The notes under the pieces are model-generated. The model saw nothing but the letters and a program-made list of their open reading frames with translations, did no database searches and was not told where the DNA came from. Source: Deltaproteobacteria bacterium HGW-Deltaproteobacteria-6 (GTDB taxonomy: Bacteria; Desulfobacterota; Syntrophia; Syntrophales; Smithellaceae). Taken from it: a stretch of 64,000 nt of DNA. The stretch is from assembly GCA_002840435.1 (NCBI GenBank), contig PHAT01000001.1, positions 592,979 to 656,978 on the forward strand, given 5' to 3'. Below, piece after piece: positions 1,257-24,221 of this stretch. Made by a program: the position numbers and the translations under genes. Position 1 is the stretch's first letter, and each line of letters opens with the position of its first letter.

Positions 1257-1454
1257 ATGTCTCGTATTTGTGAAGTATGTGGAAAAAAGCCGGCGGTCGG
1301 CAATAATGTCAGTCACGCCAATAACAAGAGCAAGACCGTTTGGCGTCCGAATCTCCAGAAGTTACGCTGTGTTGATGAAAAAACGGGAGCCGTGAAAAGA
1401 GTTAAAGCGTGTACGCGTTGCATCCGTTCCGGTTTTGTTAAAAAAGCAAGCTAA
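1257..1454 (+). CDS. rpmB: 50S ribosomal protein L28
   Basis: 65 aa, [35 protein letters not shown]..., a typical L28 sequence. An AAGGAG Shine-Dalgarno lies 8 nt upstream of the ATG. Confidence 0.95.
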
Positions 1455-2239: not shown

Positions 2240-2466
2240 AAAGACACCTGATGACGGCAGGACGGTATTTCTTCCATCAAAAAACGGCCTTTGAGATCGT
2301 CCAGAATACCTTCCATCTCCTCAAGAAAATCCGGCATGATTAATACTTGAATAATGGCTTCTTTAGGATCGATTGTGGAGACAGTGGCCAACCCTTCGTA
2401 TCCTTCGATAATAAACTGGACAAGGGTGATATCGCTTGTCTTTAATTTAAACCATTTCGTAATCAT
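2233..2466 (-). CDS. DUF4911-like small protein
   Basis: 77 aa. The segment LVQFIIEGYEGLATVSTIDPKEAIIQV matches my memory of the DUF4911 family. Confidence 0.6.
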   Translation of the reverse strand: MITKWFKLKTSDITLVQFIIEGYEGLATVSTIDPKEAIIQVLIMPDFLEEMEGILDDLKGRFLMEEIPSCRHQVSLC

Positions 2467-2611
2467 ATCTTATGTGCGGACTACCATTTATTTTTTTAAA
2501 GATCAAGAAACTAAGACTGCGCAGTTATTACCGTCAAAGGATAAACACCGCGATTTAACAGTGAAATGTATAAATAAATTCAAATTATTATTCAGGATAA
2601 CCAATGAAGGC

Positions 2612-2639
2612 TTGACATAAGATCTGTCACTGATATGAT
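2612..2639 (+). promoter_or_regulatory. candidate sigma70-type promoter (TTGACA - 16 nt - TATGAT) upstream of recJ
   Basis: TTGACA at 2612-2617 and TATGAT at 2634-2639. The first in-frame ATG of recJ (2635) sits inside the -10 box, which argues for the ATG at 2671 as the real start. Confidence 0.35.
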
Positions 2640-4410: not shown

Positions 4411-4420
4411 AGGATCCGGC

Positions 4421-4807
4421 ATGGATAAAGCGAAAAATGCAGCCCTGTTGAGCGCTCTTCTTTTTCCCGGATGGGGACAGTTTTACCTGAAACAATATAA
4501 AAGAGGATTGGTTTTCATCGTGCCCGTAATGGCAGGCCTTCTGGCTCTGGTCTGGTCGATTGCTCAGGTTGCCGTTACGATCATTAAAGCTGCGCCTTTA
4601 AAAAAAGGAACCCTTCGACTGGCAGACATCATCCAGGTAACGGATGACGCTCTGAAGGCCGTCAACATTTTTTATTTTATCATGATACTGATTCTGATCG
4701 GCGCCTTCTGGATTATTTCGATTATTGACGCGTATCACATCGGCAAAAAAATGATGTCGGCCCCTACCACTGCCTCTGGTCAAGAATCAACTTCTGATCA
4801 GGCGTAA
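4421..4807 (+). CDS. small membrane protein (3 predicted TM segments)
   Basis: 128 aa with LLFPGWGQFYLKQYKRG followed by hydrophobic helices. The start is 10 nt after the recJ stop. Its 3' end overlaps the convergent ligase gene by 44 nt. Confidence 0.65.
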   Translation: MDKAKNAALLSALLFPGWGQFYLKQYKRGLVFIVPVMAGLLALVWSIAQVAVTIIKAAPLKKGTLRLADIIQVTDDALKAVNIFYFIMILILIGAFWIISIIDAYHIGKKMMSAPTTASGQESTSDQA

Positions 4808-6017
4808 TCAAGCCTGCTTCCACATATTGAATCTCATCAATTTTGACCGTGCAAATTTCCTTAAAGATCTTCTTAAAGTTATTATCCCAGATGGCCGAAC
4901 CTGTTTCTTGATTTACCTTCTCTAGACGTAGCGTTAAAACATCCTCGTGACCTTTGCGGCTGACAATTGCCTGCAATGGCAGATTGTTGAATTTGGCTGA
5001 AATCATTTTGAGTTGACTCGGGGCGATAAACAACCCGCGGACTTTCACGGCATCCCCTACCCTGCCCGCAATACCGGCAAGCCGGTAGGCCGTTCGGCCG
5101 CAGGAGCATTTTTCGGTGATCAATCGCGATAAATCGCCTGTGCCGAAACGCAGCAGAAAGAAAATATCAATGAGGCGGGTTACGACGACTTCGCCTAATT
5201 CACCCGGCGCTACATTCTTTCCGGTTGTTGGATCGACAATTTCCACGATCGTTTCCTCGCAGATGTGCCAGCCGGATTTCCGTGAGCATTCATAAGCCAC
5301 ATCGCCTACCTCGGTTGCCCCATACATCTGATAGGTATCAATGCCGTATTCTTTTTCAAAGGCCTGTCGCAATGAAGGCAGCAGCGGCTCGGCGGCAAAG
5401 CAGGCTTTTTTTACCCGGAAATCTTTTTTGAAATTAAAACCCAGCTCCCGGGCTTTTGTGATGATGGACATCAGGAAGCTCGGTGTGCCGACGTAGGCAG
5501 TCACTTTCAAATCCTTGATCAGTTGGACCTGAACCTGCGATGAGGATGTGCCGGAAGGAACAACCGTCGCCCCGACTTTGCGCAATCCGTTGTGAAACGT
5601 CAGTCCGGCAGCGACAAGATGATAGGAAAAGGCATTAAGGGCAACGTCTTTGGGCCCGATACCCGCCGCGAAAAATGCTCTCGCCCACAGATAGTCCGTT
5701 TCGGAAAGATGCGGTTCATAAACCGGTCCCGGTGAGGTAAAAATGCGGTCGATGGATATTGAAGGATTTTCCAGTCCCGCATAAGGCGGATGCTTCATCT
5801 CCATTTCCACCAGTTTTTCCCGAGATGTGACCGGTAAACTTTCCAGATCTTCCCGTGTTTTAATTTTTGCGGGATTGATTTTGTGCCTGTCGAGTATTTT
5901 TTTTAATGCGGTTGACTTTTTATATCCCAGTTTCAGCATGGCGGACAGCGCCTGATCCTGTGTTGCCTTGCGCTCTTTTATTGAGGAATTTTCTCTGACG
6001 TCGAAATATTTTTTCAT
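4764..6017 (-). CDS. phenylacetate-CoA ligase (PaaK)/coenzyme F390 synthetase-family adenylating enzyme
   Basis: The track ORF 4764..6173 overlaps livF. The internal ATG at 6017 (MKKYFDVRENSS...) lies 10 nt after the livF stop. YQMYGATE and GDLS-type motifs and overall similarity fit PaaK-like ligases. Confidence 0.8.
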   Translation of the reverse strand: MKKYFDVRENSSIKERKATQDQALSAMLKLGYKKSTALKKILDRHKINPAKIKTREDLESLPVTSREKLVEMEMKHPPYAGLENPSISIDRIFTSPGPVYEPHLSETDYLWARAFFAAGIGPKDVALNAFSYHLVAAGLTFHNGLRKVGATVVPSGTSSSQVQVQLIKDLKVTAYVGTPSFLMSIITKARELGFNFKKDFRVKKACFAAEPLLPSLRQAFEKEYGIDTYQMYGATEVGDVAYECSRKSGWHICEETIVEIVDPTTGKNVAPGELGEVVVTRLIDIFFLLRFGTGDLSRLITEKCSCGRTAYRLAGIAGRVGDAVKVRGLFIAPSQLKMISAKFNNLPLQAIVSRKGHEDVLTLRLEKVNQETGSAIWDNNFKKIFKEICTVKIDEIQYVEAGLITPDQKLILDQRQW

Positions 6018-6027
6018 AAGTCCCCCT

Positions 6028-6828
6028 TTACAGCCAGCGTTTGCGGCGGCGGTAGGCTTTAACATCCTTGTAGGATTTGGCAATGCCCGATGCCGCCATT
6101 CCCAGGTAAAATTCTTTAACGTCCGGATTGTCTGAAAGTTCTTTGGACGTTCCTTCCATGACGATCTTGCCATTTTCCATCACATAGCCGTAATGAGCGA
6201 CCTGCAGCGCCATATTGGCGTTTTGTTCGACTAACACAATGGTTGTGGCGTGTTCTTCGTTGATCTTTTTGATGATGTGGAAGATCTCCTGAACGACCAG
6301 CGGCGCCAGTCCCAGCGACGGCTCATCCAGCATCAGCAGTTGCGGATGAGCCATTAACGCCCGGCCGATCACCAGCATCTGCAACTCTCCGCCGCTGCAA
6401 TAACCGGCCAGCGCTTTTTTTCTTTTCACCAGCGCCGGGAAATAATGATAGACCATTTCCAGATCCTGCTTATAGGGCTTGCCCGGTCTTGTTGCCGTAC
6501 CCACGCGCAGATTTTCTTCAATGGTCAGATATTTAAAAGGCTGGCGGCCTTCCAGCACCTGAATGATACCCTGGCGGGTAATAAATTCCGGCGCCTGGTT
6601 TTGAATGTTCACGCCGTTGCAAATGATATCGCCATCCGTCACTTCGCCGTTTTCCGGTTTCAGCAAACCGGAAATCGCCTTGAGCGTGGTGGTCTTCCCT
6701 GCGCCGTTGCTGCCCAGAAGCGACACAATATGCCCCCGTTCCACCGTCAGCGACACGCCTTTCAGCACCTGAATGACGTTGGAATAAACGACGGAAATGT
6801 TATTGAGTTGTAAAAGAATGTCTCCCAT
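6028..6828 (-). CDS. livF: branched-chain-amino-acid-type ABC transporter ATP-binding protein (LivF-like)
   Basis: Walker A GSNGAGKTT, signature CSGGELQM, Walker B LLMLDEPS. Confidence 0.9.
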   Translation of the reverse strand: MGDILLQLNNISVVYSNVIQVLKGVSLTVERGHIVSLLGSNGAGKTTTLKAISGLLKPENGEVTDGDIICNGVNIQNQAPEFITRQGIIQVLEGRQPFKYLTIEENLRVGTATRPGKPYKQDLEMVYHYFPALVKRKKALAGYCSGGELQMLVIGRALMAHPQLLMLDEPSLGLAPLVVQEIFHIIKKINEEHATTIVLVEQNANMALQVAHYGYVMENGKIVMEGTSKELSDNPDVKEFYLGMAASGIAKSYKDVKAYRRRKRWL

Positions 6829-6872
6829 ATGTTATCCTACCTAACCCCGCTATGCGGGATAAGTGCGTTAAC

Positions 6873-6910
6873 GAAATTATTTTCTCCAATCATTTGCGGA
6901 AAATAATTTC
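6873..6910 (-). other. intercistronic hairpin (12-bp AU-rich stem, 14-nt loop) between livM-like and livF-like genes
   Basis: GAAATTATTTTC at 6873-6884 and its exact reverse complement GAAAATAATTTC at 6899-6910. Confidence 0.5.
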
Positions 6911-6917
6911 TAACTTA

Positions 6918-7988
6918 CTAATACGAAAACGGCCAGAGCCGGAAATTTGAACGCACAATCCGCCACAATTCAGCGAGCCCCTTCGGTTCCAGCAGAATGA
7001 ACAGGACAATGGCCAGACCGAAAACAAACTCACGAAGCGGCGCCATATTCAACCCCATGCTGGTGATCACACCAACGTTCATCAGCGACCCCGTCGCGAA
7101 TCGCAAAACCTCATTCAGAATGGTAATGAAGGTCGCGCCGAAAATTGCGCCGGGAATGTTGCCCATGCCGCCGATAATAACCATGGCGATAAACTCCACC
7201 GAAAGCCCCAGATTGAATGGTTCGGTGGTAATGCTGACCATGTAATAAGCCCAGAGGGCGCCGGCAAATCCGGCATAGAACGAGCTGATGGCAAACGACA
7301 GCAGTTTATACTTGAAAATGGGAATTCCCATTCCTTCCGCAGCGCGGTCATTGTCGCGGATGGCAATAAACGCCCGTCCGTACTTGCTGCGCATGATATT
7401 AACGGCAAACCAGGTCATCGAAACGAGGCAAACGAAAATCAAAAAGAAAAAAGCTTTATCGCCTGCAATATCCCAACCCAGAATACTGGGGCCGGGCAAT
7501 GTAATGCCCATGGTTCCCTTGGTGAGGCTTTCCCACTGAATCAGCACATATTCAATAATGATTTGCCCGGCGAGCGTCGCAATCGTCAAATAAAGCCCTT
7601 TCAGCCGGCCGGATGGAATACCGAAGATCATACCGATCATGGCGGTAACCAGACCGGCTGCGGGAATGGACAGGTAAAACGGCACATCCAGACGCGTCGC
7701 CAGGATCGCCGCGGCATAAGCGCCAACGCCGAAGAACGCCCCATGCCCCAGAGAGATCTGCCCGGTGTAGCCAACGAGGATATTGAGGCCTATCGCGGCA
7801 ATCGCCAGAATGCCGATGGTGTTTAAAATGTAAAGCAGATAAGAGCTTAAAAATAATGGCGCGAGTCCGAAAAGCAGAATCAGAAAGCCGCCCATGCAGC
7901 ACCTGCCGAACCAGGTTTCGAAGATGGATAATTCCTCGGCGTAATTTTCGCGATAGTTACCGCAGGGATGAAAAGATAATTTTTTCAT
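6918..7988 (-). CDS. livM: LIV-type ABC transporter permease (LivM-like)
   Basis: 356 aa, polytopic membrane protein with typical LivM-family sequence (GQISLGHGAFFGVGAY). Confidence 0.9.
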   Translation of the reverse strand: MKKLSFHPCGNYRENYAEELSIFETWFGRCCMGGFLILLFGLAPLFLSSYLLYILNTIGILAIAAIGLNILVGYTGQISLGHGAFFGVGAYAAAILATRLDVPFYLSIPAAGLVTAMIGMIFGIPSGRLKGLYLTIATLAGQIIIEYVLIQWESLTKGTMGITLPGPSILGWDIAGDKAFFFLIFVCLVSMTWFAVNIMRSKYGRAFIAIRDNDRAAEGMGIPIFKYKLLSFAISSFYAGFAGALWAYYMVSITTEPFNLGLSVEFIAMVIIGGMGNIPGAIFGATFITILNEVLRFATGSLMNVGVITSMGLNMAPLREFVFGLAIVLFILLEPKGLAELWRIVRSNFRLWPFSY

Positions 7989-7994
7989 AAATAT

Positions 7995-8873
7995 TTAAAC
8001 TCTTTCAATCTCCACCAGACCGAACAGGCCATAGGGTTTAACCATCAAAATGAAGACCAGGACAATGTAAGGCACAACATCGCGAAGCGACGGCGAGAGG
8101 TAACCACCGGTAAAGGTCTCCAGAAGGCCGATAATGATCCCTCCGATGATCGCGCCGCCGATGCTGTCCAACCCGCCTAAAATGACCACCGGAAATACCT
8201 TCAGTCCGATGGCGCTTAAATCATGAACATTGACGCCGTTGATGATGCCCAGGACAATTCCGCTCATGCATGCCACCATGGCCGCAATGGCCCAGGATAG
8301 CGCAAAGACGCGCCGGACATGAACGCCCAGCGACAAAGCGGCCTTTTGATTATCGGCCACGGACCGCATAAAAATCCCCTGTGATGATTTTTTAAAAAAC
8401 AATCCGAAGAGAATCAGAAAAATAACGCTGATGACCAGTGTGGCTGAATAAACCGGGGCGATGTAAATGGAACCTAAATGCAGTTCCAGTTCCGGAGGCA
8501 GAAATTCAGGATAGGTTTGCAGATTGCCGCCCCAGATCAGCAGGATGAGGCCTTTGAACATGGCGGACAGTCCCACGGTAAGCATAATGACAAAAATCAG
8601 TTTTTCACCGATAAGCGGCCTCAGAAAGAATTTTTCAATCAGGACGCCCAGGATAAAGCAGCCGGCCAGCGTAATTAAGAATGAAGCCGCAATCGGGAGT
8701 TTTCCCCAGGTAACAAGCGATAGAAAAAAGAAAGCGCCCAGCGCCAGCAACTCACCATGAGCAAAATTAAGAACGCTCGACGCTTTGAAGATCATGACAA
8801 ATCCCATGGCGGATATGCCGTAAAGGAGTCCGACACAAACCCCGTTGACCAATAACTGTAGAAAAAATTCCAT
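7995..8873 (-). CDS. livH: LIV-type ABC transporter permease (LivH-like)
   Basis: 292 aa, polytopic. The N-terminus MEFFLQLLVNGVCVGLLYGISAMGFVMIF is typical of LivH. Confidence 0.9.
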   Translation of the reverse strand: MEFFLQLLVNGVCVGLLYGISAMGFVMIFKASSVLNFAHGELLALGAFFFLSLVTWGKLPIAASFLITLAGCFILGVLIEKFFLRPLIGEKLIFVIMLTVGLSAMFKGLILLIWGGNLQTYPEFLPPELELHLGSIYIAPVYSATLVISVIFLILFGLFFKKSSQGIFMRSVADNQKAALSLGVHVRRVFALSWAIAAMVACMSGIVLGIINGVNVHDLSAIGLKVFPVVILGGLDSIGGAIIGGIIIGLLETFTGGYLSPSLRDVVPYIVLVFILMVKPYGLFGLVEIERV

Positions 8874-8884
8874 ATTCTGATTCC

Positions 8885-10813
8885 TTAATCCACGCCGATA
8901 ATGTTGATCGTCGTTTCGATTTCGCCGATCCGTCCGTCCCGATACCGGATTTTCCCCGTCACCGGAACATTCTTTATTCCGCCGTACATGGCCTCGATAA
9001 TCTTGATATACAGTCCATAGACGAAACGCCGGCGCACCTTTCCGGTGCGTGTCAGTTCATCATCGTCTGCGTCCAGTAGTTTATAAAGCAAAACGAACTT
9101 TTTGATTTTCATCACGTCGGGCAACTGTTCATTCACCTGTCGGACTTCCTTTAAAATCAGCTCTTCCACGGCCTTTTGCTGCGATAAATCCATATACGTC
9201 GTATACGGGATCATCCTTTCTTCCGCCCAGTTGCCGACATTGCCCAGATCGATGTTGATCATGGCGGAAATATAGGGTCTTGCTTCGCCGAAGGTGACCG
9301 CTTCCTTGATATAAGGACTGAACTTGAGACGGGTTTCTATAAAATCCGGAGAGAAAGCCTCACCGCTTTTATTGCGGATGATGTCTTCTTTTCTGCCGAT
9401 AATCAACAAGTGGCCGTCTTCATCAATGTAACCCGCGTCACCGGTTTTGAGCCAACCGTTTTCAAACGCTTCTTCCGTTGATTTGTAATCGTTATAATAG
9501 CCGGAAAAATTGGCTTCCGATTTCACCAGCACTTCCTGATCATCGGCCAGTTTCACTTCCGTGAGCGGCAGGGGCCTACCGACGGTTTCCAGTTTGACTT
9601 CGTCATCGGGCTGAATCTGAAAAATACCGCCGGATTCCGTGAGGCCATAGCACTGTTTTAAATTCAGGCCGATTGCGCGAAAAAAGCCAATCACGTCCGG
9701 GCTGATCGGATGGCCGCCGGTGAAGGCGCTGTGAAAATGCGAACAGCCCAGGCGGTCGAGCAAAGGATTATAAACAGCCACCGTTAGAAAGCGATACAGG
9801 AGTTTCGATGTCCAGGAAATATTTTGCTTGTGTAATTTTTTTTCAACAACCGATCGACCGACGCTTTCCCCAAAATAAAACAGCTTTCTTTTAATCCAAC
9901 TGGCATCCGATATCTTGACGCGGATGCGAGAGGCCATATCCTCCCAGAACCGCGAAGACGTTATGAGCATGGAAGGGCCAATGTCTCTGAAATCGTCCAG
10001 CACCGTTTCAGCCGTCTCCGGAAAGTTCATGGTCATCGCAGTGCCGAGGGCCACGCCCATCCCCCACATCTGATCGACGATCCACGCCGGCGGCGACATG
10101 GAGATCCAGTTTTCTTCCGGTTGAATGTTCGTGGCTTCCACCCACTGCGTCGCCATCGTTGTCAGATTGCGGTGGGACAGCATGGCCATTTTCGGGACAC
10201 CGGTGGTGCCCGATGTCTGGATCATCACCGCAATATCCTGCGCCCGTCCTTTGCCGATTTCCTCTTCAACATAACCCGGATGACCGGCCATGAATTTTTC
10301 ACCGATCTCCAGCAGACCGGCATAGCTGATCAGCCAGGGATCATTTTCATAAGCCGTCATGCCGGTGGGATCAATATAAACAACTTTTTGCACGTTAGGC
10401 AGTTTATCTTTTACTTCGATAAGTTTATCGACCTGCTCCTGATCCTGTACCACCACCAGAGGAGAATGAATGCGCCCGATGGAAAAAGCCAGTTCATCGG
10501 CAATGGATGACGTGAATAAATTGAGGGAGGTCGCACCCAGAGCATGCGTAGCCAGTTCGGTAAACAGCCATTCGGGGGCATTGTTGACAATCATGCAGAG
10601 ATTTTCGCCCCGTTTCATGTTCAGGGCGGCAAAACCCGCGGCGGTTTTCTTGACGTAGTTGAAGTAATCATTCCAGGTATATCTTTGCCAGATACCGTAA
10701 GCCTTTTCACGGATCGCCGTTTTCGCGTCACCGTAATGAGCGGCATTTTGAGCCAGCAGCTGCGGCAGTGTTAAATTCCGCAAATTGCGGCTATTTGATT
10801 TGTCCTTATCCAA
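8885..10813 (-). CDS. AMP-dependent (long-chain-type) acyl-CoA synthetase
   Basis: 642 aa. AMP-binding signature IQTSGTTGVPKMAMLSH and the downstream GWLKTGDAGYIDEDGHLLIIGR motif. Confidence 0.88.
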   Translation of the reverse strand: MDKDKSNSRNLRNLTLPQLLAQNAAHYGDAKTAIREKAYGIWQRYTWNDYFNYVKKTAAGFAALNMKRGENLCMIVNNAPEWLFTELATHALGATSLNLFTSSIADELAFSIGRIHSPLVVVQDQEQVDKLIEVKDKLPNVQKVVYIDPTGMTAYENDPWLISYAGLLEIGEKFMAGHPGYVEEEIGKGRAQDIAVMIQTSGTTGVPKMAMLSHRNLTTMATQWVEATNIQPEENWISMSPPAWIVDQMWGMGVALGTAMTMNFPETAETVLDDFRDIGPSMLITSSRFWEDMASRIRVKISDASWIKRKLFYFGESVGRSVVEKKLHKQNISWTSKLLYRFLTVAVYNPLLDRLGCSHFHSAFTGGHPISPDVIGFFRAIGLNLKQCYGLTESGGIFQIQPDDEVKLETVGRPLPLTEVKLADDQEVLVKSEANFSGYYNDYKSTEEAFENGWLKTGDAGYIDEDGHLLIIGRKEDIIRNKSGEAFSPDFIETRLKFSPYIKEAVTFGEARPYISAMINIDLGNVGNWAEERMIPYTTYMDLSQQKAVEELILKEVRQVNEQLPDVMKIKKFVLLYKLLDADDDELTRTGKVRRRFVYGLYIKIIEAMYGGIKNVPVTGKIRYRDGRIGEIETTINIIGVD

Positions 10814-10828
10814 CTCTTCAAGCCCTTA

Positions 10829-11659
10829 TCATTCTAGTGCCTGCGCATCTCCCAGATACGCTTTTATCACTTCGGGATTGGCGCTGATTTCTTCCGGATT
10901 GCCTTCGCCCAGTTTTTCACCGAAATTCAAAACCATGATCCGCTGGGAAATACTCATGACGATGGACATATCATGTTCAACGAGAATCATCGTGAGTCCC
11001 CATCTGCCGTTTAGTTCCAGCAGAAATCTGACCATGTCCTCTTTTTCTTCCAGATTCATGCCCGCGAAAGGTTCATCCAGAATCAGCAAACGGGGTTCGA
11101 GAGCCAGTGCCCTGCCCAGTTCTACTCTTTTCATCATGCCGTAAGGCAGAGAACCAACGGTTTGTTTGCGAATGGATTGCATTTCGAGAAAATCAATTAT
11201 CTCTTCCAGAATCTGACGATGCCTTATTTCTTCTCTCCGGACTTGCGGTGAAAAAAGGCATGAGCGTAAAAAACTGTAATGGCAATGGATATGACGCGCC
11301 AACGTCATATTGGCCAGGACGGTCATGCCGGGAAACAACTCGATGTTTTGGAAAGTTCTGCCGATACCGACGCCGACCAGCTGGTGCGTATGCAGATGCG
11401 TAATGTCCTGGCCGTTGAAAATAATCTGCCCCTGCTGCGGATGATAGAATCCGGTAACGCAATTGAGCAGACTGGTTTTGCCTGCGCCGTTAGGCCCTAT
11501 GACCGCCATCAGTTCGCCGGTATGGACAGTCAGATCCACATCTTTAACCGCCACAACACCGCCAAAACTTAAACGTAAGTTCCGGATCTCCAATTCGGCT
11601 TTTTTGTCTTCTTGGGGCCGGTTGATCATGATGGAAGGCCGGCTGCGGAATGCTTTCAT
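10829..11659 (-). CDS. livG: LIV-type ABC transporter ATP-binding protein (LivG-like)
   Basis: Walker A GPNGAGKTS, LPYGMMKRVELGRAL, Walker B LLILDEPFAG. The start could be the internal ATG at 11629. Confidence 0.9.
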   Translation of the reverse strand: MKAFRSRPSIMINRPQEDKKAELEIRNLRLSFGGVVAVKDVDLTVHTGELMAVIGPNGAGKTSLLNCVTGFYHPQQGQIIFNGQDITHLHTHQLVGVGIGRTFQNIELFPGMTVLANMTLARHIHCHYSFLRSCLFSPQVRREEIRHRQILEEIIDFLEMQSIRKQTVGSLPYGMMKRVELGRALALEPRLLILDEPFAGMNLEEKEDMVRFLLELNGRWGLTMILVEHDMSIVMSISQRIMVLNFGEKLGEGNPEEISANPEVIKAYLGDAQALE

Positions 11660-11740
11660 GAATCCCTCTGTGCAGACAAAAACACTGCGCTCAAATACCC
11701 CGGGGATGCCGGATCATCCGGCCCCCCGGGTTTAATTTCA

Positions 11741-12973
11741 TTATTTATTGATCAGTTTAATCTTATCTTTCCCGGGAATATAAAAATTCGTCAGGGGTGT
11801 ATAAGTTCCGTCTTCTTTTACTTTCACCATGCGCGCGGTAAATGACGCCTCATGATTGTCTTTGCTAAATGACACCGCCGGGACCAGGCCGCCAAAATCC
11901 TCTTTCTTCATGGATTCCAGTGCGGCATTGATCGTGGCCGGGTTGATGACTTTGGACTTTTCGCTGGCGCGGATGAAGGCTCTCTCCATTATCATCCCGA
12001 CTACGACGCCTTCCCAGTAAGCCGCATCAAACGAATCCACTGTTTTGTATCGTTTCCACAGATCTCTCATAATGTCCATTCCCTTGGATTTATCCGATGG
12101 CAAACCGCCCGGAAACTGCATCACCAGACGGTCGCGGATCAGACCCTTGCCCATTTTGAAGAAGTCCGGATCGGTGGATGTCCAGGTTCCGAGAAAGACA
12201 GGATTGTATTTGATACGATCGGCACTCTTAAAAGCGGTAATGATGGCCGAAGGCAGCATCTGAATGAAAATGTACTCCGCGCCGGCTTTCTGCAGACGCA
12301 AAAGTTCCGTATTGAGATCAACCGTACGCGGCGGAAATTCTTCAATAGCAACCAGACGAATTCCCAACTGCTTCGCATATTCCCTGCTGGGAGCATGAAT
12401 CGAACGTCCATAAGCATTGTTGTAGGTTAACAGGCCGACCTTGGGGGCTTCCTTGCCTTTATGAATGGCCTTGATGTATTCCAGAACGGCATGACAGTCC
12501 AGTTTGTAGCTCCCGAAGGGCAGATACATATAATGAACCGGTTTTTCGAGAATTTCCCAGCTGGTCGAATAGTTAATCGTCGGTACTTTGTACTCCTGAA
12601 TGATGGGTTTTGCGGCAAGTCCCTCGCCTGCACCCCAGGTGGCGATCATATCCACTTTATCCTGCATGACAAATTTGCGAACGGCCGCCTGAGCTTCCGG
12701 CACTTTATAAGCAGTGTCAATGGTAATCATTTCGATTTTCTGGCCGGCAACGCCGCCCTTTGTTTCATTGACATAACGGAAATAGTCGCGCTGGCCTTTT
12801 TCATGAAATTTCCCCCAGCTTGACGCCGGACCGGTCAGGTTGATTGCCGCACCGACCTTGATCGGTTTTTTGTCGGCGGCAGCGGTGCCAACGGTCATTA
12901 ACACAAAAACTGAAATTGCCAGCAATATTCTGATCCATCTCTTCATTTTTTTCATTCCCCCTTTATTTTTCAT
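11741..12973 (-). CDS. LIV-type periplasmic substrate-binding protein (type I PBP)
   Basis: Signal peptide MKRWIRILLAISVFVLMTVGTAAA followed by a PBP fold. The track start at 13006 lies inside the upstream terminator hairpin, so I use the ATG at 12973. The ATG at 12946, behind AAGGGGG, is an alternative. Confidence 0.85.
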   Translation of the reverse strand: MKNKGGMKKMKRWIRILLAISVFVLMTVGTAAADKKPIKVGAAINLTGPASSWGKFHEKGQRDYFRYVNETKGGVAGQKIEMITIDTAYKVPEAQAAVRKFVMQDKVDMIATWGAGEGLAAKPIIQEYKVPTINYSTSWEILEKPVHYMYLPFGSYKLDCHAVLEYIKAIHKGKEAPKVGLLTYNNAYGRSIHAPSREYAKQLGIRLVAIEEFPPRTVDLNTELLRLQKAGAEYIFIQMLPSAIITAFKSADRIKYNPVFLGTWTSTDPDFFKMGKGLIRDRLVMQFPGGLPSDKSKGMDIMRDLWKRYKTVDSFDAAYWEGVVVGMIMERAFIRASEKSKVINPATINAALESMKKEDFGGLVPAVSFSKDNHEASFTARMVKVKEDGTYTPLTNFYIPGKDKIKLINK

Positions 12974-12985
12974 CACCTTTTCCCG

Positions 12986-13026
12986 GCAAAAAAAAACCGT
13001 GGGCAAATTCTCATCTGCCCACGGTT
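12986..13026 (-). terminator. intrinsic terminator (11-bp stem, 10-nt loop, T-run) 13 nt upstream of the substrate-binding-protein start
   Basis: Minus strand reads AACCGTGGGCA-gatgagaatt-TGCCCACGGTT followed by TTTTTTT. Forward-strand arms are at 12995-13005 and 13016-13026, with the A-run at 12988-12996. Confidence 0.75.
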
Positions 13027-13045
13027 CATTCCCTTTTGCGATCGG

Positions 13046-13138
13046 TCATGATACTTTCAGGCAGACCTTGAAGCCGCTAAAGCTAAAAAAGTAAAAGTAA
13101 AAGCTGACTGCCTGGGTAAATAAATATTGTTTTAACAT
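13046..13138 (-). CDS. candidate 30-codon Phe/Tyr-rich leader peptide MLKQYLFTQAVSFYFYFFSFSGFKVCLKVS
   Basis: Hand translation: ATG at 13138-13136, TGA at 13048-13046, GAGGTG Shine-Dalgarno at 13148-13153 (9-nt spacing). It has 7 Phe and 3 Tyr. It is below the length cut-off of the ORF track. Confidence 0.4.
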   Translation of the reverse strand: MLKQYLFTQAVSFYFYFFSFSGFKVCLKVS

Positions 13139-13163
13139 ACCTTGAAACACCTCATATGCCGCG

Positions 13164-13192
13164 TGTATAGGCAAATGACTGATAAAAGTCAA
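13164..13192 (-). promoter_or_regulatory. candidate sigma70-type promoter (TTGACT - 17 nt - TATACA) for the leader and LIV-type operon
   Basis: On the minus strand, TTGACT is the reverse complement of 13187-13192 and TATACA is the reverse complement of 13164-13169. Confidence 0.4.
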
Positions 13193-13228
13193 GAAAAAAG
13201 TTATATTTCGAAAGATGAGTATCCCGTT

Positions 13229-14515
13229 CTAGCGTTCTTCCATCGGAACATAATGCCTTAAATTACTTCCGGTGTAGATTTGTCTCGGACGGCCGAGTTT
13301 TAACGGAATGGAATCGTGCATCTCCTTCCACTGCGCGATCATACCCGGCAATCTCCCGATGGCAAACATGACGGTGAACATATTCGTCGGAATACCGATC
13401 ATCCGGTAGAGAATACCGCTGTAAAAATCCACGTTGGGATAGAGTTTCCGCTCGATAAAAAAGTCGTCCTTCAAAACCGCTTCTTCTAGCTCCATGGCGA
13501 TGTCGACAAGGGGATCATCATAGTTATATTTTTTAAAAATCTTTTCACAATACTGTTTCAGAATCTTGGCGCGCGGATCATAATTCTTGTAAACACGATG
13601 TCCAAAACCGAAAAGCCTGAACTTACTGTCTTTACTCTTGGCCGAGTCGATGCATTGCTGGATGGTCACATTGTCTTTCTTGATGTTTTCCAGCATCTCG
13701 ATGACTTTTTGATTTGCGCCACCGTGCAATGGACCCCAGAGCGCGCAGATCCCCGCGCAGATTGAGGCGTAAAGGTTGGACATGCTGCTGCCGACCAGCC
13801 TTACAGCGGATGTGGAGCAATTCTGTTCATGATCGGCATGCAGAATCAATAATGTGGAAAGCGCTTTTTCAACATCCGGGTCCGGCGTATAAGGATTCAC
13901 CGGAGAGTCGAACATCATGTAAAGAAAATTCGCCGCATATTTCAAATCGCGTTTTGGATAAACATGCGGGTGGCCGATACTGTGTTTGTAGGAATAGGCG
14001 GCAATTGTGCGGATTCTGGAGATCAGGGACGCAGCCATCAGATCGAAGGTGTCCGCCTGAAAATCTTCCGTAAAGTAATCCGTATAATAAACGGACATGG
14101 AGTTGACCATTGTTGCCAGAATCGCCATGGGATGGGCGGTCGGCGGAAACCCGTCAAAGAATCTCAGCATCTCTTCATGAATCATCGAATTCTGTGTCAG
14201 GTGCTGAGAAAAAAGCTGCTGCTGAGACTGATCGGGAAGATCGCCGTAAATCAGCAGATAGGCCACTTCGGAAAAACTGGCCTTTTCGGCAAGTTCCTCG
14301 ATAGGGATGCCGCGATATCTCAAGATACCCTTGTCGCCGTCGATAAATGTGATGGAAGACATGCAGGACCCCGTGTTTTGATAGCCGAGATCCAGTGTAA
14401 TCAAACCGGTTTCCTGACGCAGCCTGGAGATGTCAACGCCCTTCTCCCCTTCCGTGCCCTCTACAACTTCCATTTCATGAGTTACGCCTTGATAGGTTAA
14501 CTTTGCTTTTTTCAT
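13229..14515 (-). CDS. gltA: citrate synthase
   Basis: Typical type II citrate synthase sequence (GILRYRGIPIEEL, LILHADHEQNCSTS, GPLHGGAN, GFGHRVYK). The ATG at 14515 (MKKAKLTYQG) has AGGAGA 9 nt upstream, so I prefer it to the track start at 14548. Confidence 0.95.
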   Translation of the reverse strand: MKKAKLTYQGVTHEMEVVEGTEGEKGVDISRLRQETGLITLDLGYQNTGSCMSSITFIDGDKGILRYRGIPIEELAEKASFSEVAYLLIYGDLPDQSQQQLFSQHLTQNSMIHEEMLRFFDGFPPTAHPMAILATMVNSMSVYYTDYFTEDFQADTFDLMAASLISRIRTIAAYSYKHSIGHPHVYPKRDLKYAANFLYMMFDSPVNPYTPDPDVEKALSTLLILHADHEQNCSTSAVRLVGSSMSNLYASICAGICALWGPLHGGANQKVIEMLENIKKDNVTIQQCIDSAKSKDSKFRLFGFGHRVYKNYDPRAKILKQYCEKIFKKYNYDDPLVDIAMELEEAVLKDDFFIERKLYPNVDFYSGILYRMIGIPTNMFTVMFAIGRLPGMIAQWKEMHDSIPLKLGRPRQIYTGSNLRHYVPMEER

Positions 14516-15032
14516 TTTTAATAGTCTCCTGACATAAAATCCATTCATTAATATCCACCGTCTGCATTACACGTCATTTCGTTGAAATAAGTGTGATAAT
14601 GAGATTTCACTTCTCCGTGATAGCCAGTGGATTGGTTTATAGAATCAACTTATTTCGTAATATATACATTAAAGGGAAAAAGTCTGTCAATATCTTATAA
14701 TGGATCACCGTGGAAAGATGGTTTCTGTATGTAACAAACGGGCAAATGCCGGGATTTAAAGAAACAATCGCTTATTGGATATTATTCAAATAGTCAGGCA
14801 TGAGCGATGGTTATCGACACTCGCCTTGAGAAAATAATCAAATCGGGAGGAAATCAGTGATCTCCCTCTTGAATGAGAAAGCGATCAGTATAATGAGCGA
14901 ATTGAATGGCCCAAACCGATTAAAAAAGGGAAACGGCCGGTTCCGGCGAGTCCGCCTGATCTTGTCTTGAGGAATTGATTGACAAACAGGACCGGCCCGC
15001 ATACTCTACGATTACAGAAAGAGGTAAATGTT

Positions 15033-15683
15033 ATGGTTGCCGCTCAGGATGCTTCATATCATTATTTAGAAGAATTATTGAACAGCATTACCCATGGCGC
15101 CGGCGCTTTGTTAAGCGTTGCCGCTTTGATTTTGCTGATTGTTTATTCCAGTATTCACGGCACCGCCAGCCACGTCGTGAGTTTTACGATTTTCGGCGTT
15201 ACGCTGATTTTGTTATATTCGGCATCCACTTTATATCACAGCATCCGGAAGCCGCAGGCAAAAAACATCCTTAAAATCATTGATCATTCCTGTATCTATC
15301 TTTTAATAGCCGGCACTTACACCCCTTTCCTGATGGTTACACTGCGTGGCGTTCTGGGATGGTCGATGTTCGCCGCGATCTGGTTGATGGCAGTTGCCGG
15401 TGTGCTTTTCAAAATATTCTTTGTGCATCGCTTTAAAATCATCTCTACAGCCGCCTATCTCCTCATGGGCTGGATTATCATTTTTGTCATTAAGCCGTTG
15501 ATTGATTCGCTTCCGCCGGGAGGCATTATTCTGCTTTTGGCAGGCGGACTATCCTATTCTCTGGGTGTCATTTTTTATGCCTGGGAAAAGCTGCCTTTCA
15601 ATCACGCGATCTGGCATCTGTTTGTCCTCGCCGGCAGTATCTGTCACTTTTTCTCCATCATTTTTTACGTCCTTCCTCTGTAA
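15033..15683 (+). CDS. hemolysin III / PAQR-family membrane protein
   Basis: 7-TM protein with N-terminal ELLNSITHG and C-terminal HAIWHLFVL motifs. The ATG at 15033 has GAGG 8 nt upstream, whereas the track uses a TTG at 14979. Confidence 0.85.
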   Translation: MVAAQDASYHYLEELLNSITHGAGALLSVAALILLIVYSSIHGTASHVVSFTIFGVTLILLYSASTLYHSIRKPQAKNILKIIDHSCIYLLIAGTYTPFLMVTLRGVLGWSMFAAIWLMAVAGVLFKIFFVHRFKIISTAAYLLMGWIIIFVIKPLIDSLPPGGIILLLAGGLSYSLGVIFYAWEKLPFNHAIWHLFVLAGSICHFFSIIFYVLPL

Positions 15684-15777
15684 TTGTTAAGGAATAAAAA
15701 CAGCCTTGAATTATCATTTTTTAAATGCTAGAAGCAGGCTTGTTTCAATAATAACAAGCTGAAACGGGGAGATCAAT

Positions 15778-17487
15778 ATGAAAAAAACTATTTCGGTTAT
15801 TCTGTGTCTGGCAGCTCTCCTGTTGGTTGTTGCAACAGTCTGGGCCAAGGATAAATATACAGTAACGGTTTTGCCGTTTTCACTGCACAGTGCAGAAAAC
15901 ATTGAATATGTCCGTCAGGGAATCGGCGACATGCTGACAAGCCGGATCGCAGTTCCTGATAAAATTGAAGTGACAAGCAAAGACGTTGTTCAGAATATCG
16001 TGAGCAAAACAGGAGCAAAGGAACTGAAACCTGCCGATGTTCAAAAAATCGGCCAGCAATTAAAAGCCGATTATGTCGTCTGGGGCAGTATTACAAAAAT
16101 CGGCAGCAGTATCAGTATTGACGGAAAACTTATCGATATTACGGGCGGAAAATCGGATGTCGGCATTTTCTCCCAATCACAAACCCTTGATGAAGTCATT
16201 CCGAAAATCAATAATTTTTCACAACGGATCGTCCAGCACATTCTTGGAACAACACCCCAGGCGGAGCCGGCGCCATCCGTCGCACCCGCGGCGGTTCGAC
16301 CTCCCGTTCCCGGAGCATCGCGTGAAGCGCAAATCATTGCGGGAATGAAGGCTGGCAGCAAAAAGGGCACCCTGACCTCCATGATCAATCCGGAATACAT
16401 CAACACAGCCGATCCCATCAACCGGCGAGGCTTCTGGATGAGTCAGCAGTTCAAAACGGAATTTAAAGGGATGGACGTAGGCGACGTCAACCGCGACGGA
16501 TTGAACGAAGTCGTCGTTATTGACAGCCACAATGTGTATATATACCAGAAGACCAAGGATAATTTAAAATTACTCAAGCAAATAAAGGGAAAATCGTACC
16601 ATAATTACATATCCGTGGATATAGCAGACATCAACAAGGACGGCACTCCGGAAATTATTGTCACATCCTTAATGGAGAAAACACTCAATTCTTTCGTCCT
16701 GCAATACCAGGACGGCGACTATAAGATGATTGCTTCAGGCATCGAGTATTTTATGCGTATGATCGATACCCCGTCGGGCATTCCGATCCTTCTGGGACAG
16801 ACTTTTGGCACGGGAGAGAAGATCTTTGATACGCCGATTTATGAAATGGTATGGAAGAACGGGACCTATGATGCCGGCGATAGAATGAAAATACCTCAGG
16901 GCTTATCCATTTATGGTTTGACAATGGATACAATTGGTTCGGGGACCAGTGAAAAAATTATTGCCCTGGATGAACTGGACTACTTATTAGTTATTACACC
17001 AACCAATAAATCGTTGAGCCGGCTTTTAACTTTTGGTTTTACTCCCGAAGAATTGATCTGGAGAAGCGATGATGTTTATGGCGGCAGCAATAACTATATC
17101 TCCAACTTTGACAAGGATAGATCCACCAGCAGCGAGTCCGTTCAGAAAGATAACGCATTTGCCAATTTGCGTATTCTGTCGTTCGATACCAACAAAGACG
17201 GCAGGAAGGAACTGATTATTGTTAAAAACCTGTCGTCTTCAGGCCGAATTTTTAAAAACTTGAAACTTTTCACATCCAGTGAAATATACAATCTGGAGTG
17301 GGATGGCCTCGGAATGATGGAAAACTGGCGTACAAAAAAAATTAATGGCTATGTCGCCGACTACTGTTTCAAAGATATCAACAACAACGGTAAACCTTCC
17401 ATTGTCCTGGCCCTGGTCCAATCCGTCGGAGGGACGCTCAGTGAACGAAGTGTCATCGTTGTTTATGAATTGGCGATGCCTCAATAG
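15778..17487 (+). CDS. secreted FG-GAP/VCBS-repeat protein with an LpoB/CsgG-like N-terminal domain
   Basis: Signal peptide MKKTISVILCLAALLLVVATVWA. Repeated Ca-binding-like loops DVNRDGLNEVVVID, DINKDGTPEIIVTS, DTNKDGRKELIIV and DINNNGKPSIVLA. Confidence 0.8.
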   Translation: MKKTISVILCLAALLLVVATVWAKDKYTVTVLPFSLHSAENIEYVRQGIGDMLTSRIAVPDKIEVTSKDVVQNIVSKTGAKELKPADVQKIGQQLKADYVVWGSITKIGSSISIDGKLIDITGGKSDVGIFSQSQTLDEVIPKINNFSQRIVQHILGTTPQAEPAPSVAPAAVRPPVPGASREAQIIAGMKAGSKKGTLTSMINPEYINTADPINRRGFWMSQQFKTEFKGMDVGDVNRDGLNEVVVIDSHNVYIYQKTKDNLKLLKQIKGKSYHNYISVDIADINKDGTPEIIVTSLMEKTLNSFVLQYQDGDYKMIASGIEYFMRMIDTPSGIPILLGQTFGTGEKIFDTPIYEMVWKNGTYDAGDRMKIPQGLSIYGLTMDTIGSGTSEKIIALDELDYLLVITPTNKSLSRLLTFGFTPEELIWRSDDVYGGSNNYISNFDKDRSTSSESVQKDNAFANLRILSFDTNKDGRKELIIVKNLSSSGRIFKNLKLFTSSEIYNLEWDGLGMMENWRTKKINGYVADYCFKDINNNGKPSIVLALVQSVGGTLSERSVIVVYELAMPQ

Positions 17488-17877: not shown

Positions 17878-18855
17878 ATGACTCCCATATCCAATAATTA
17901 TAATGCAACTTTTCTGCCCAGATCTTTCCTGAAAAACGGGCATCTTCAGTCAATTCTGGCTTCGGCGAGCTTGCTGATTCCTCCCCATCGTCCCCTTTTG
18001 GATCATTCCCGGGAATTGATTATCGACACGACGGAAGGATCGAAATTGCTGGCTTATTATTCGCGTCATCCCCGTTCTAAAGGACTATTCATTATTCTGC
18101 ATGGCTGGGAAGGTTCTTCATCTTCAGCCTATGTCCTGGCCACCGGGTCATACTTTTTTAACAAGGGCTTCTCCGTTTGCCGTCTGAATTTAAGAGATCA
18201 CGGCGACTCGCATCATCTCAATGAAGGTCTTTTCCACGGCGCTCTGCTCCAGGAAACGTTTGATGCCGTCGACACTCTTGCAAAACATTCACAGGGTTTA
18301 CCCGTCTACCTGATGGGCTTTTCTCTGGGCGCAAACTTCTCTCTTCGCATCGCGATGAAACATTCTCAAACACCCATTGAAAATTTAAAACATGTCTTCG
18401 CCGTCAGCCCCCCTCTGGACCCTTATAAAACAACACTGGCTATCGATAACGGTCTTCCCTTCTATCGTCGATACTTTATGAAAAAGTGGAGGCGTTCGTT
18501 AAAAAAGAAGCAACAGCTTTTTCCGCAAAAATATAACTTTACCCAAATGCTGCGCGCTGAAACATGTCTGGAGCTAACCGATGACATTATGGTGTATTTT
18601 CCGCAGTTCCCTTCATATCGTGATTATTTCAGGTTATACACATTGAGCAACCAGTCATTTCAGAATCTCAACATACCGGTCAGAATAATCATCGCAACGG
18701 ATGATCCGGTCATCCCTCTGGATGATTATCAATCCCTCAGTGACAACCATTTTCTGACAATATCCCGGCAGCCCTTTGGGGGGCACTGCGGTTTTATTAA
18801 CTTGTTTCCCTACAGCCGCTGGTATAATGAAACCATTTCAGAAATATTAAAATGA
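17878..18855 (+). CDS. alpha/beta hydrolase (YheT-like)
   Basis: 325 aa with HGWEGSSSSAY, the nucleophile elbow GFSLGAN and a C-terminal GGHCGF, as in the YheT/abhydrolase family. Confidence 0.8.
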   Translation: MTPISNNYNATFLPRSFLKNGHLQSILASASLLIPPHRPLLDHSRELIIDTTEGSKLLAYYSRHPRSKGLFIILHGWEGSSSSAYVLATGSYFFNKGFSVCRLNLRDHGDSHHLNEGLFHGALLQETFDAVDTLAKHSQGLPVYLMGFSLGANFSLRIAMKHSQTPIENLKHVFAVSPPLDPYKTTLAIDNGLPFYRRYFMKKWRRSLKKKQQLFPQKYNFTQMLRAETCLELTDDIMVYFPQFPSYRDYFRLYTLSNQSFQNLNIPVRIIIATDDPVIPLDDYQSLSDNHFLTISRQPFGGHCGFINLFPYSRWYNETISEILK

Positions 18856-23449: not shown

Positions 23450-23872
23450 TTACTTTTTCTTCAGAATCATAAAGGTTGCCGATACGCGGCAGATGTTTTC
23501 TCCCGATTGATCTCTCACCAGGCAGTCGCCGATAATCAGGCTCTTTCCCTTTTTAAATACAGTTGCTTCGGCAATAAGATGGCCCTTTGATACACCTGCC
23601 AGAAAATTGCTTTTGAGCTCAATTGTGGTCAGGCCTTCATCCAACGACAATTGAGACATCATCGCGTGAGCAATCGTCTCGTCCGCAAACGCGACGATCA
23701 GACCACCCTGCATGATTTTTGCGCCTTGCAGGTATTCGGGACGAACCGGCATTTGCATGCGCGCCAGACCATTTTTAATCTCAAGAACCGTTACGCCGAA
23801 AAAGTCCAGATATGGATTTACGCCCTGCTGGCCATCACATACTTTTTTTAAATAATGATTGTAATCAAAAAT
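23450..23872 (-). CDS. PaaI-family hotdog thioesterase, probably starting at a non-canonical codon
   Basis: The track gives 23450..23758. The same frame is open upstream to the stop at 23897-23899 and encodes NPYLDFFGVTVLEIKNGLARMQMPV, which is the conserved N-terminal part of the PaaI fold. There is no ATG, GTG or TTG there. ATT at 23872-23870 sits 8 nt after a GGGGG Shine-Dalgarno. Confidence 0.6.
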   Translation of the reverse strand: MFDYNHYLKKVCDGQQGVNPYLDFFGVTVLEIKNGLARMQMPVRPEYLQGAKIMQGGLIVAFADETIAHAMMSQLSLDEGLTTIELKSNFLAGVSKGHLIAEATVFKKGKSLIIGDCLVRDQSGENICRVSATFMILKKK

Positions 23873-24221
23873 GATTCTTACCCCCTGGTTATTGATTTAT
23901 AATCGTTTATTTTTCCCTGCGTCAAGAGAAAACATCATCAGAGATTGGCTATTAATTATCCACCTGGTTACTGTTTGCGGGTAAATATTATCCGTTTGCC
24001 GTGACTTTATCACTGTGATTTCCGGATCTTTATACTTTACTCTGTAATAACGATCTATTACGATTGCAAAACGATCTGGCATGAAGATTGATATTTATCT
24101 ATTTAAAATGCTATAAGAAAAGTTAATTTTGCATATATGCAGCAGTCAACTTGGTATTTAAGCAATTTAAAACATGTGGTAAACAACTTTGGAAAGGCAT
24201 CTGATCAACAGTCTTATGCTA

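Follow-up and report, generated by a model that had tools for sequence, protein, structure and literature searches.

The 282-nt spacer between the citrate synthase gene gltA and a LIV-type uptake operon, on the minus strand of a 64,000-nt stretch of Deltaproteobacteria bacterium HGW-Deltaproteobacteria-6 (Smithellaceae; contig PHAT01000001.1, positions 592,979 to 656,978; the whole stretch is called the window), in all likelihood houses a ribosome-mediated, leader-peptide transcription attenuator that senses charged tRNA-Phe. This reading, put forward as a candidate in a preliminary description of the same DNA, is supported by the conservation of the leader open reading frame (ORF), by covariation in the helices formed by segments 1 and 2 and by segments 3 and 4 of the leader RNA (1:2 and 3:4), by the independence of the element from gltA, and by the occurrence of the same scaffold at aro, pheA, and trpE operons. 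Judged from the sequence, expression of the operon would most likely be raised under phenylalanine scarcity. The design matches the pheA, pheST, and trp attenuators of E. coli, and the mechanism itself is unsurprising.

Elements and folding of the leader

All elements are encoded on the minus strand. gltA (14548-13229) lies directly 5' of the attenuator spacer. The first regulated gene encodes a periplasmic substrate-binding protein (Peripla_BP_6) of 401 aa (11741-12946), and the remainder of the operon (4764-11659) encodes a LivG-like ATPase, a 642-aa AMP-binding acyl-CoA ligase, two LivH/LivM-type permeases, a LivF-like ATPase, and a PaaK-like AMP-binding ligase. The end of the operon faces recJ, which is encoded on the opposite strand.

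A promoter with the -35 box TTGACT (13192-13187), a 17-nt spacer, and the -10 box TATACA (13169-13164) is preceded by a T-rich stretch. It was not picked up by a consensus promoter scan, because the scan demands T as the last base of the -10 hexamer. Its reality is argued by the related loci described below, 59/60 of which carry TTGAC and a TA-rich -10 box at a constant distance, including those without an upstream gltA. The Shine-Dalgarno sequence GAGGTG (13148-13153) is located 9 nt before the leader ATG (13138). The leader ORF (13046-13138) comprises 30 codons and a TGA (13048-13046) and encodes MLKQYLFTQAVSFYFYFFSFSGFKVCLKVS, with 7 Phe and 3 Tyr. Its regulatory codon run, Phe13 to Phe23 (FYFYFFSFSGF; 13070-13102), has 6 Phe and 2 Tyr codons and falls in the loop between segments 1 and 2.

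Segment 1 (CAGGCAG; 13108-13114) is the partner of segment 2 in the minimum-free-energy fold. Segment 2 (GGTCTGCCTG; 13058-13067) contains CTGCCTG at 13064-13058, is read as K-V-C-L in the window leader, and can pair either with segment 1 as an anti-antiterminator or with segment 3 as an antiterminator. A small hairpin between segments 2 and 3 (UCAUGACC ... GGGAAUGA; 13026-13051) holds the leader stop codon and fits both states. Segment 3 is the terminator 5' arm AACCGTGGGCAGAT (13013-13026), including GGCAGA at 13019-13014, and segment 4 is the 3' arm ATTTGCCCACGGTT (12988-13008), which leads into a run of nine T. The complete terminator, AACCGTGGGCA(GAT)...(ATT)TGCCCACGGTT followed by T9 (13026-12988), has a G+C-rich stem of 13-15 bp before the U9 tract and was the strongest terminator-like site in the 12 kb from 4000 to 16000, with 15 pairs counted.

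The preliminary description had named the promoter, the Shine-Dalgarno sequence with the ATG 9 nt further on, the ORF with its Phe and Tyr content, the motifs CAGGCAG, CTGCCTG, and GGCAGA, and the terminator, all of which were found where it had placed them. Its distance of 13 nt between the terminator and the binding-protein start needs correction. The start is most likely the ATG at 12946 rather than that at 12973, because this gives 401 aa, the length called for most orthologues, and a GGGGGA Shine-Dalgarno sequence about 10 nt upstream, which leaves 41 nt between the end of the T-run and the gene. The consensus scan found no promoter-like site in this 41-nt spacer, the sequence of which differs between species. 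This agrees with the earlier claim that the operon has no promoter 3' of the terminator, which had been argued from a 13-nt gap. Upstream, 37 nt separate the end of gltA from the -35 box, with no terminator of gltA's own between them, and gltA transcripts therefore probably end at the attenuator hairpin. Read-through from gltA probably also feeds into the leader.

The computational fold of the 181-nt leader, a check that had been proposed earlier, was better than that of shuffled sequences (z = -2.8; 2/200 shuffles as good). The window sequence alone is not strongly beyond chance, and the significance comes from the comparison with other genomes. The full-length minimum-free-energy fold consists of helix 1:2 (CAGGCAG:CUGCCUG, enclosing the Phe codons), the small hairpin, and helix 3:4, with -46.5 kcal/mol. 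As long as the 3' arm has yet to be transcribed, and with a ribosome set on Phe18, the nascent RNA has its free-energy minimum in the antiterminator fold (-18.2 kcal/mol). The Phe codons precede segment 2 by 6-44 nt, and the stop codon starts 10 nt past its end, distances that would fit standard ribosome footprints as presumed in the model.

The following sequence of events is proposed. Transcription would start at the conserved promoter near 13160, and a ribosome would translate the 30-codon leader. With phenylalanine plentiful, the ribosome would reach the TGA (13048-13046) and cover segment 2 (13067-13058) or, if it has already gone, segment 2 would pair with segment 1. In either case the terminator 3:4 (13026-12995 and U9) would form and transcription would stop 41 nt before the operon. 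With Phe-tRNA scarce, the ribosome would stall on the Phe codons at 13102-13078 (Phe13 to Phe20), so that segment 1 is held off and segment 2 is free. Segment 2 would then pair with the terminator 5' arm (GUCUGCCU:GGGCAGAU, extended via the small hairpin) ahead of synthesis of the 3' arm, and RNA polymerase would continue into the operon. From this arrangement we infer where the ribosome stands, in which kinetic order the helices fold, that phenylalanine is the signal, and that the operon imports phenylalanine or a precursor.

A nearly invariant block, AAGGGAAATGAAC, is located just 5' of the terminator. A second small ORF, MNRGQMRICPRFFFAGKR, results from it and extends across the terminator (13033-12975, minus strand), with a gap between GGGA and ATG that is too short for a normal Shine-Dalgarno sequence. 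Conservation of the block more likely reflects its pairing with UCAUGACC.

Conservation across related loci and aromatic amino acid operons

One genome per species was scanned, yielding 60 loci with binding proteins 64-92% identical to that of the window. By their names, the closest binding proteins place the window in the Smithella/Smithellaceae group (Syntrophales). Inspection by eye found the promoter, the Shine-Dalgarno sequence, the in-frame Phe-rich ORF, segment 2 (GGTCTGCCTG), and the terminator upstream of the same operon in 60/60 loci. gltA is located upstream in 27/60, and the 33/60 loci without it retain the complete element, which disposes of the earlier caveat that the hairpin merely ends gltA transcription. 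A covariance model built from 48 of the loci (transporter leaders only) gave exactly one match per locus, always just 5' of the binding-protein gene and also in loci outside the training set, and a single match in the window. Three more loci, reached through more distant binding proteins with that of locus L051 as query, carry the element; one of them is labelled Planctomycetaceae and one Syntrophobacteraceae. The order binding protein-LivG-ligase-LivH was constant in all loci examined, and at locus L031 the element is located 228 nt further upstream. T9 after the terminator is kept in nearly all loci, and TTTTTTAGCTTTA, GGTCTGCCTG, TCATGACC, and AAGGGAAATGAACCGTGGGCAGA are nearly invariant across the Smithellaceae.

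The leader ORF was open and in frame in 60/60 sequences (the window and 59 of the 60 loci), and its Phe codons were kept along with the frame, as the preliminary description had proposed to check. No stop occurred in frame 0 over the 60 sequences, compared with 123 and 133 in the other two frames, which were closed in 57-58/60 sequences (open in 2 and 3). Insertions and deletions inside the ORF were mostly multiples of 3 nt. The 56 distinct leader peptides are 17-34 aa long and keep the Phe run while sequence and length vary, with 4-8 Phe per leader and overall shares of 21.9% Phe, 4.9% Tyr, and no Trp. In Smithellaceae, 1-4 Tyr codons stand amid the Phe codons, and Tyr may be a minor contributor to sensing. 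Phe codons numbered 341 in frame versus 161 and 177 out of frame, and TTC, a codon able to mark phase, 58 versus 14 and 17. A T-rich template does yield Phe codons in every frame, as the earlier caveat had it, and the in-frame level is about twofold higher.

In Smithella-type loci, GAGGT, AAGAGG, or AAGGAG is kept 6-11 nt before the ATG despite changing flanks. The N-terminal half of the leader diverges freely, and nothing but the Phe run and the RNA segments stays constant. The C-terminal part FFSF.GFKVCL is well conserved within the Smithellaceae, followed by three variable last residues (KVS, TGS, DVS, IDS, PRL, and others).

A second, shorter architecture occurs in Desulfomonilia-type loci, with leaders of 17-19 aa (M...FGFFFFD or M...SFFFFFV, each followed by the stop) and hardly any 5' untranslated region. 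Here GGTCTGCCTGCG follows immediately on the stop codon and is able to form 12 bp with the terminator 5' arm, and a helix TGATTAGGTCT:AGATCTAGTCA takes the anti-antiterminator role. In the loci L046-L053, L058, L060, and L062, which have this architecture, the leader ATG is found a few bases past the predicted -10 box without a Shine-Dalgarno sequence, and the short-type leader may be translated from leaderless mRNA.

Compensatory changes, another check suggested in advance, were found in helices 1:2 and 3:4. In the 48 aligned leaders (alignment A1), the 7-bp helix 1:2 was paired in 95.7% with two compensating pairs (C-G to A-U and A-U to G-C), and the 13-bp terminator stem 3:4 was paired in 91.8% (90-92% with alignment A3 included) with compensatory changes in 4 pairs, rising to 8 in A3. 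The small hairpin was paired in 91.8%, with no compensatory change in the close set and with such changes in A3. Over the 90 sequences of A3, an alignment that was fitted to the model structure and is thus biased towards it, compensatory changes occurred in 25/35 pairs and in 131 cells versus 35 +/- 5 in shuffles (0/500 shuffles reached the observed value), and slid controls were far lower. The antiterminator 2:3 (GUCUGCCUG with UGGGCAGAU) was paired in 95.7% of cells. In deeper branches its duplex reached -22 to -30 kcal/mol (z = -3 to -6.5).

Further variation was seen around the transporter leaders. Insertions of about 190-230 nt separate the attenuator terminator from the binding-protein gene at L031 (1918-2144) and L063 (9812-10000). 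Both are rich in G+C, contain long inverted repeats, and could be repeat elements or small mobile insertions. At L056, L040, L042, L054, and L061 and in most of the aro leaders described next, the attenuator terminator is followed in tandem by a second intrinsic one (GGCCGTGG...CCACGGCC and a T-run). Its stem resembles the first hairpin (CCGTGG/CCACGG), and the window and its close relatives have one terminator only. The binding-protein copy at L054 has stop codons.

The scaffold is also present before aromatic amino acid biosynthesis operons. Metagenome contigs were searched for GGTCTGCCTG-N25-45-CCGTGGGCAG, which gave at least 120 matches. Among the matches listed, 74 look like true terminators with a following T-run, and 46 were rejected as chance matches in coding DNA with no following T-run, for example in a recurring MASWLAYLARSAWFSRFAMVL frame. 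At least 51 matches stand before the binding-protein operon, again with Phe-rich leaders, at least 5 before DAHP synthase (aroFGH type)-aroB-aroE-aroA, and at least 7 before 2-amino-3,7-dideoxy-D-threo-hept-6-ulosonate (ADH) synthase-dehydroquinate synthase II followed by pheA or aroE-aroA. At least 1 stands before aroE-trpE and at least 1 before an acyl-CoA ligase. Nine other terminator-like matches were listed, 8 with too little downstream sequence and one (L165) followed by no panel gene. The scaffold (CAGGCAG / GGTCTGCCTG / CCGTGGGCAG hairpin) precedes aromatic biosynthesis operons at L070, L071, L077, L083, L093, L096, L137, L158, L160, L162, L166, L177, and L183, and the gene identities at the aro-type loci reach NCBIfam cut-offs. 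Searched with the transporter-leader-only covariance model, the aro leaders were matched with E-values of 1e-10 to 1e-5 and neither of two chance-match controls was matched.

Tyr, Phe, and Trp abound in the aro leaders (for example MAQIFSGNYAYYYFYYFNGIGLPGVR and MHNHSGNYFYYYWYFYTTGLPEAR), in the order Tyr > Phe > Trp, and Trp abounds in the leader before trpE (...GFGGWYWFWCDD...). CAGGCAG is retained in these leaders, and GGTCTGCCTG is read as G-L-P-G, not K-V-C-L. Since segment 2 is read in differing frames, the conserved block is RNA and the tuned part is the codon run. The ORF of the aro leaders stops about 18 nt after GGTCTGCCTG starts. The closest homologues of the ADH synthase are named Desulfatirhabdiaceae and Desulfobacterales, and the aro members are therefore assigned to a neighbouring order. 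These Desulfobacterales-like attenuators before aro, pheA, and trpE (L070, L071, L083, L158, L160, L166, and others) have the scaffold in common with the transporter leader but control biosynthesis, not uptake, and usually carry the second tandem terminator.

At L083, a second, divergent leader (MKTTYMTKGYFNFGRFFFSFRSVHPVC) precedes DAHP synthase (I-beta) and chorismate mutase/prephenate dehydratase (pheA). It has its own 1:2, 2:3, and 3:4 hairpins and has the FFFSF motif in common with the window leader. The two attenuators of this locus are arranged back to back, one on each strand, with about 250 nt between them (7562-7728, minus strand, and 7986-8128, plus strand), the Tyr-rich leader directed to DAHP synthase (I-alpha)-aroB-aroE-aroA and the Phe-rich leader to DAHP synthase (I-beta)-pheA. 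Such pairs were also observed at L096, L077, and L093. The scaffold-bearing metagenome bacteria use the archaeal-type route of ADH synthase and dehydroquinate synthase II.

Weighing of the attenuator against other readings

Several observations weigh against a phenylalanine-sensing attenuator, beside the structural bias of alignment A3 noted above. Covariation of helix 2:3 was sought in the alignments and none was found, each of its strands being also locked into another helix. The bare 2:3 duplex of the window is modest (-13.3 kcal/mol, z = -1.1 versus shuffles), and locus by locus the duplex reaches significance in deeper branches only, not in the window or in many of its close relatives. 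Of the mutually exclusive helices proposed in the preliminary description, 1:2 and 3:4 are thus backed by covariation, and 2:3 by conserved pairing but not by covariation of its own. The leader ORF has no classical coding signature beyond its frame, start, Shine-Dalgarno sequence, and Phe codon phase. No excess of third-position variation was detected (entropy of codon positions 1, 2, and 3 of 0.51, 0.83, and 0.74), and purifying selection on the peptide is therefore not claimed. A free N-terminus and the lack of a third-position excess are what one would see if nothing counted but frame, translatability, and codon identity. The contigs that carry the aro-operon relatives are Desulfobacterales-like and not demonstrably Smithella. 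The DAHP synthase of the window itself (34914-35924, plus strand; I-beta type with an N-terminal ferredoxin-like regulatory domain; 516.7 bits versus a cut-off of 335) has no leader ORF or terminator in the 210 nt upstream and is therefore not under the attenuator scaffold. Lastly, two acyl-CoA ligases are not obviously needed for amino acid uptake, the candidate substrate being phenylalanine or a precursor.

Two further readings of the element are each improbable. In the first, an aromatic compound would be sensed directly, by a riboswitch or by a protein that binds the leader RNA, with the ORF incidental or a helper. The nucleotide conservation of the four blocks TTTTTTAGCTTTA, GGTCTGCCTG, TCATGACC, and AAGGGAAATGAACCGTGGGCAGA is unusually high for a leader-peptide attenuator and would suit it, as would the missing third-position excess. 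The most conserved blocks are, however, the segments that need two pairings, and there is no conserved multi-helix ligand pocket, just three alternative hairpins. A cmscan of 12000-14000 against Rfam at E <= 10 gave five chance-level matches to unrelated families and neither Phe_leader (RF01859) nor another amino acid leader. In addition, the aromatic codon run survives changes in frame, length, and architecture and tracks the pathway (Phe for this operon and pheA; Tyr, Phe, and Trp for aro; Trp for trpE), which a ligand-binding RNA would not need.

There is a similarly slim chance that the leader is a TnaC-type arrest peptide stalling on free phenylalanine or an aryl acid, in which case the inducer of the operon would be its substrate instead of starvation. 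Acyl-CoA ligases are typical of catabolic uptake, for which substrate induction would be suitable, and the conservation of FFSF.GFKVCL in the Smithellaceae also counts in its favour. These C-terminal residues nevertheless overlap RNA segment 2, which is read as GLPG in the aro leaders, the last three residues vary, and the short architecture has just FGFFFFD before its stop. Were the ribosome to stall at the stop codon, segment 2 would be covered, which would favour termination and not read-through. Biosynthetic operons, for which induction by starvation is to be expected, have the same design upstream.

Very little speaks for the ORF as a functional small hydrophobic protein, for example a membrane partner of the transporter, with the hairpin serving as an ordinary terminator or stabiliser between cistrons. 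At 30 aa, a hydrophobic peptide rich in aromatic residues would be able to span a membrane, and the ORF is conserved with a good Shine-Dalgarno sequence. Against this, the peptides range from 17 to 34 aa with free sequence outside the Phe run and no detectable purifying selection, a strong terminator inside an operon is sensible only if regulated, and related leaders precede operons for cytoplasmic biosynthetic enzymes. That the hairpin is a plain gltA terminator, the Phe ORF a by-product of T-rich DNA, and the operon served by unregulated read-through or an unseen promoter can hardly be credited, since the missing terminator between gltA and the -35 box, the probable end of gltA transcripts at the hairpin, and the 161-177 Phe codons in the other frames are outweighed by the whole element at 33/60 loci with other upstream genes, by the conserved frame, start codon, and Shine-Dalgarno sequence with about twofold enrichment of in-frame Phe codons, and by the same scaffold before aro, phe, and trp operons.

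A ribosome-mediated attenuator, the favoured reading, has well-known counterparts. In the pheA (pheL) and pheST (pheM) leaders of E. coli, tRNA-Phe charging is read by the translating ribosome. The window leader resembles them in its promoter-proximal ORF with a Phe run, in its terminator just before the first structural gene, and in the proposed mutual exclusion of its 1:2, 2:3, and 3:4 hairpins. It differs in its lineage (Syntrophales and other Desulfobacterota), in a leader twice as long, in Phe codons that lie in the loop between segments 1 and 2 with translation running through segment 2, and in genes for an ABC importer and acyl-CoA ligases instead of a biosynthetic enzyme or tRNA synthetase. 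E. coli trpL represents the textbook 1:2 / 2:3 / 3:4 logic, with two Trp codons within segment 1. As there, the terminator is thermodynamically stronger than the antiterminator and the choice would be kinetic, whereas the long Phe run here is located between segments 1 and 2 and the sequences are unrelated.

Uptake control by leader-peptide or terminator/antiterminator attenuation has a precedent in the histidine leader-peptide attenuators before transporter operons (hisZ*YX; PMC9413887) and in the "ABC-leaders" predicted by comparative genomics (PMC2965389). Both concern another amino acid, other phyla, and unrelated sequences, and none is located on a LIV-type importer with acyl-CoA ligases. 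No account of a Phe leader before an operon of the LIV-type/CoA-ligase kind was found in the searchable literature, which agrees with the earlier claim of novelty, although the survey of bacterial attenuators by Lopatovskaya et al. 2010 may cover related cases. Likewise, no description of an aromatic attenuator scaffold in Desulfobacterota or of aryl-acid salvage in Smithella was found there.

Function of the operon and further observations

Under a logic of starvation-induced read-through, the operon would supply phenylalanine, either as Phe itself or as a precursor acid. The attenuator thereby offers a functional clue to a widespread uncharacterised operon, the product of which should be phenylalanine or a phenylalanine precursor. 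More than 2,200 homologues of the binding protein were found at E <= 1e-30, and the operon is currently annotated merely as "branched-chain amino acid transport" and "long-chain-fatty-acid-CoA ligase". Against solved structures the binding protein had its best match in 3lkb, annotated as an amino-acid-binding protein (E = 1e-29), and matched structures of aromatic-acid binders at about 1e-7 to 1e-9 only, a comparison that does not resolve the ligand. The ligase encoded by the last gene was considered as the phenylacetate-CoA ligase PaaK and rejected, as it falls far below the curated cut-offs (205.7 bits versus 700 for NF041878 and 183.6 versus 646 for TIGR02155). The preliminary description had connected the aromatic leader with a PaaK-family ligase in the operon; the ligase is indeed PaaK-like, but the connection itself is conjectural.

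It is possible, if rather doubtful, that the operon takes part in aryl-acid salvage, an idea drawn from general knowledge of anaerobes. An aryl acid (phenylacetate or phenylpropionate) would be imported, activated to its CoA thioester, reductively carboxylated to phenylpyruvate, and converted to phenylalanine. Such a route from aryl acids to phenylalanine is known from rumen bacteria and methanogens. For syntrophs it would, if true, be an energy-saving strategy. A search of the 64-kb window for indolepyruvate/phenylpyruvate ferredoxin oxidoreductase or other phenylalanine genes found the DAHP synthase alone, with 50/52 long ORFs annotated (a 128-aa ORF at 4421-4807 and a 102-aa ORF at 23450-23758 were left out).

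At L095, a Phe-rich leader of the same family (MSMTAISMVDNFFSFFCFFRRVCLLCS) stands directly before a stand-alone 538-aa acyl-CoA ligase, with no transporter genes. The attenuator is located at 3558-3712 on the minus strand of the stored locus and the ligase ORF at 5575-7191 after reverse-complementing; the ligase scored 502.7 bits versus a cut-off of 476 (NF004837). This arrangement hints that CoA activation of some acid may itself belong to the Phe-responsive set.

The combined proposal, in which the window leader is the Phe-specific member of an undescribed modular family of aromatic attenuators in Desulfobacterota and the operon a phenylalanine-salvage module, is tentative and on balance unlikely to hold in both parts. 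If the family exists as envisaged, its members would have one antiterminator/terminator scaffold in common, and their leader ORFs would differ in frame and be tuned to Phe, Tyr, or Trp. Few regulators are known for syntrophic and sulfate-reducing Desulfobacterota, most of which are uncultured. These bacteria appear to run aromatic genes (aro, pheA, trpE, and the importer) via a shared RNA scaffold, which could be used as a search tool for further members of the regulon.

Some neighbouring genes of the transporter operon were recorded at related loci. At L062 (18540-20287), a divergently encoded ACT-domain protein and a PaaK-type ligase (AMP-binding plus AMP-binding_C_2) adjoin the operon, and this pairing often goes with aryl-acid metabolism in anaerobes. 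At L061, small PDDEXK_3 and GIY-YIG nuclease-like genes are inserted among the transporter operon genes (14455-14847 and 17926-18267), and a type III CRISPR-Cas locus (Cmr/RAMP, Cas1, Cas2) together with ParDE and HEPN/NTase pairs is located upstream (1-7354).

Elsewhere in the window, two MacB-type tripartite efflux systems (OEP, HlyD, ABC, MacB_PCD/FtsX) are encoded at 24189-28583 on the plus strand and 39057-44346 on the minus strand, one of them with a PAS fusion on its HlyD-like component. A MotA/MotB pair (49583-52209, minus strand) adjoins a cNMP-binding protein with a FliG_C domain.

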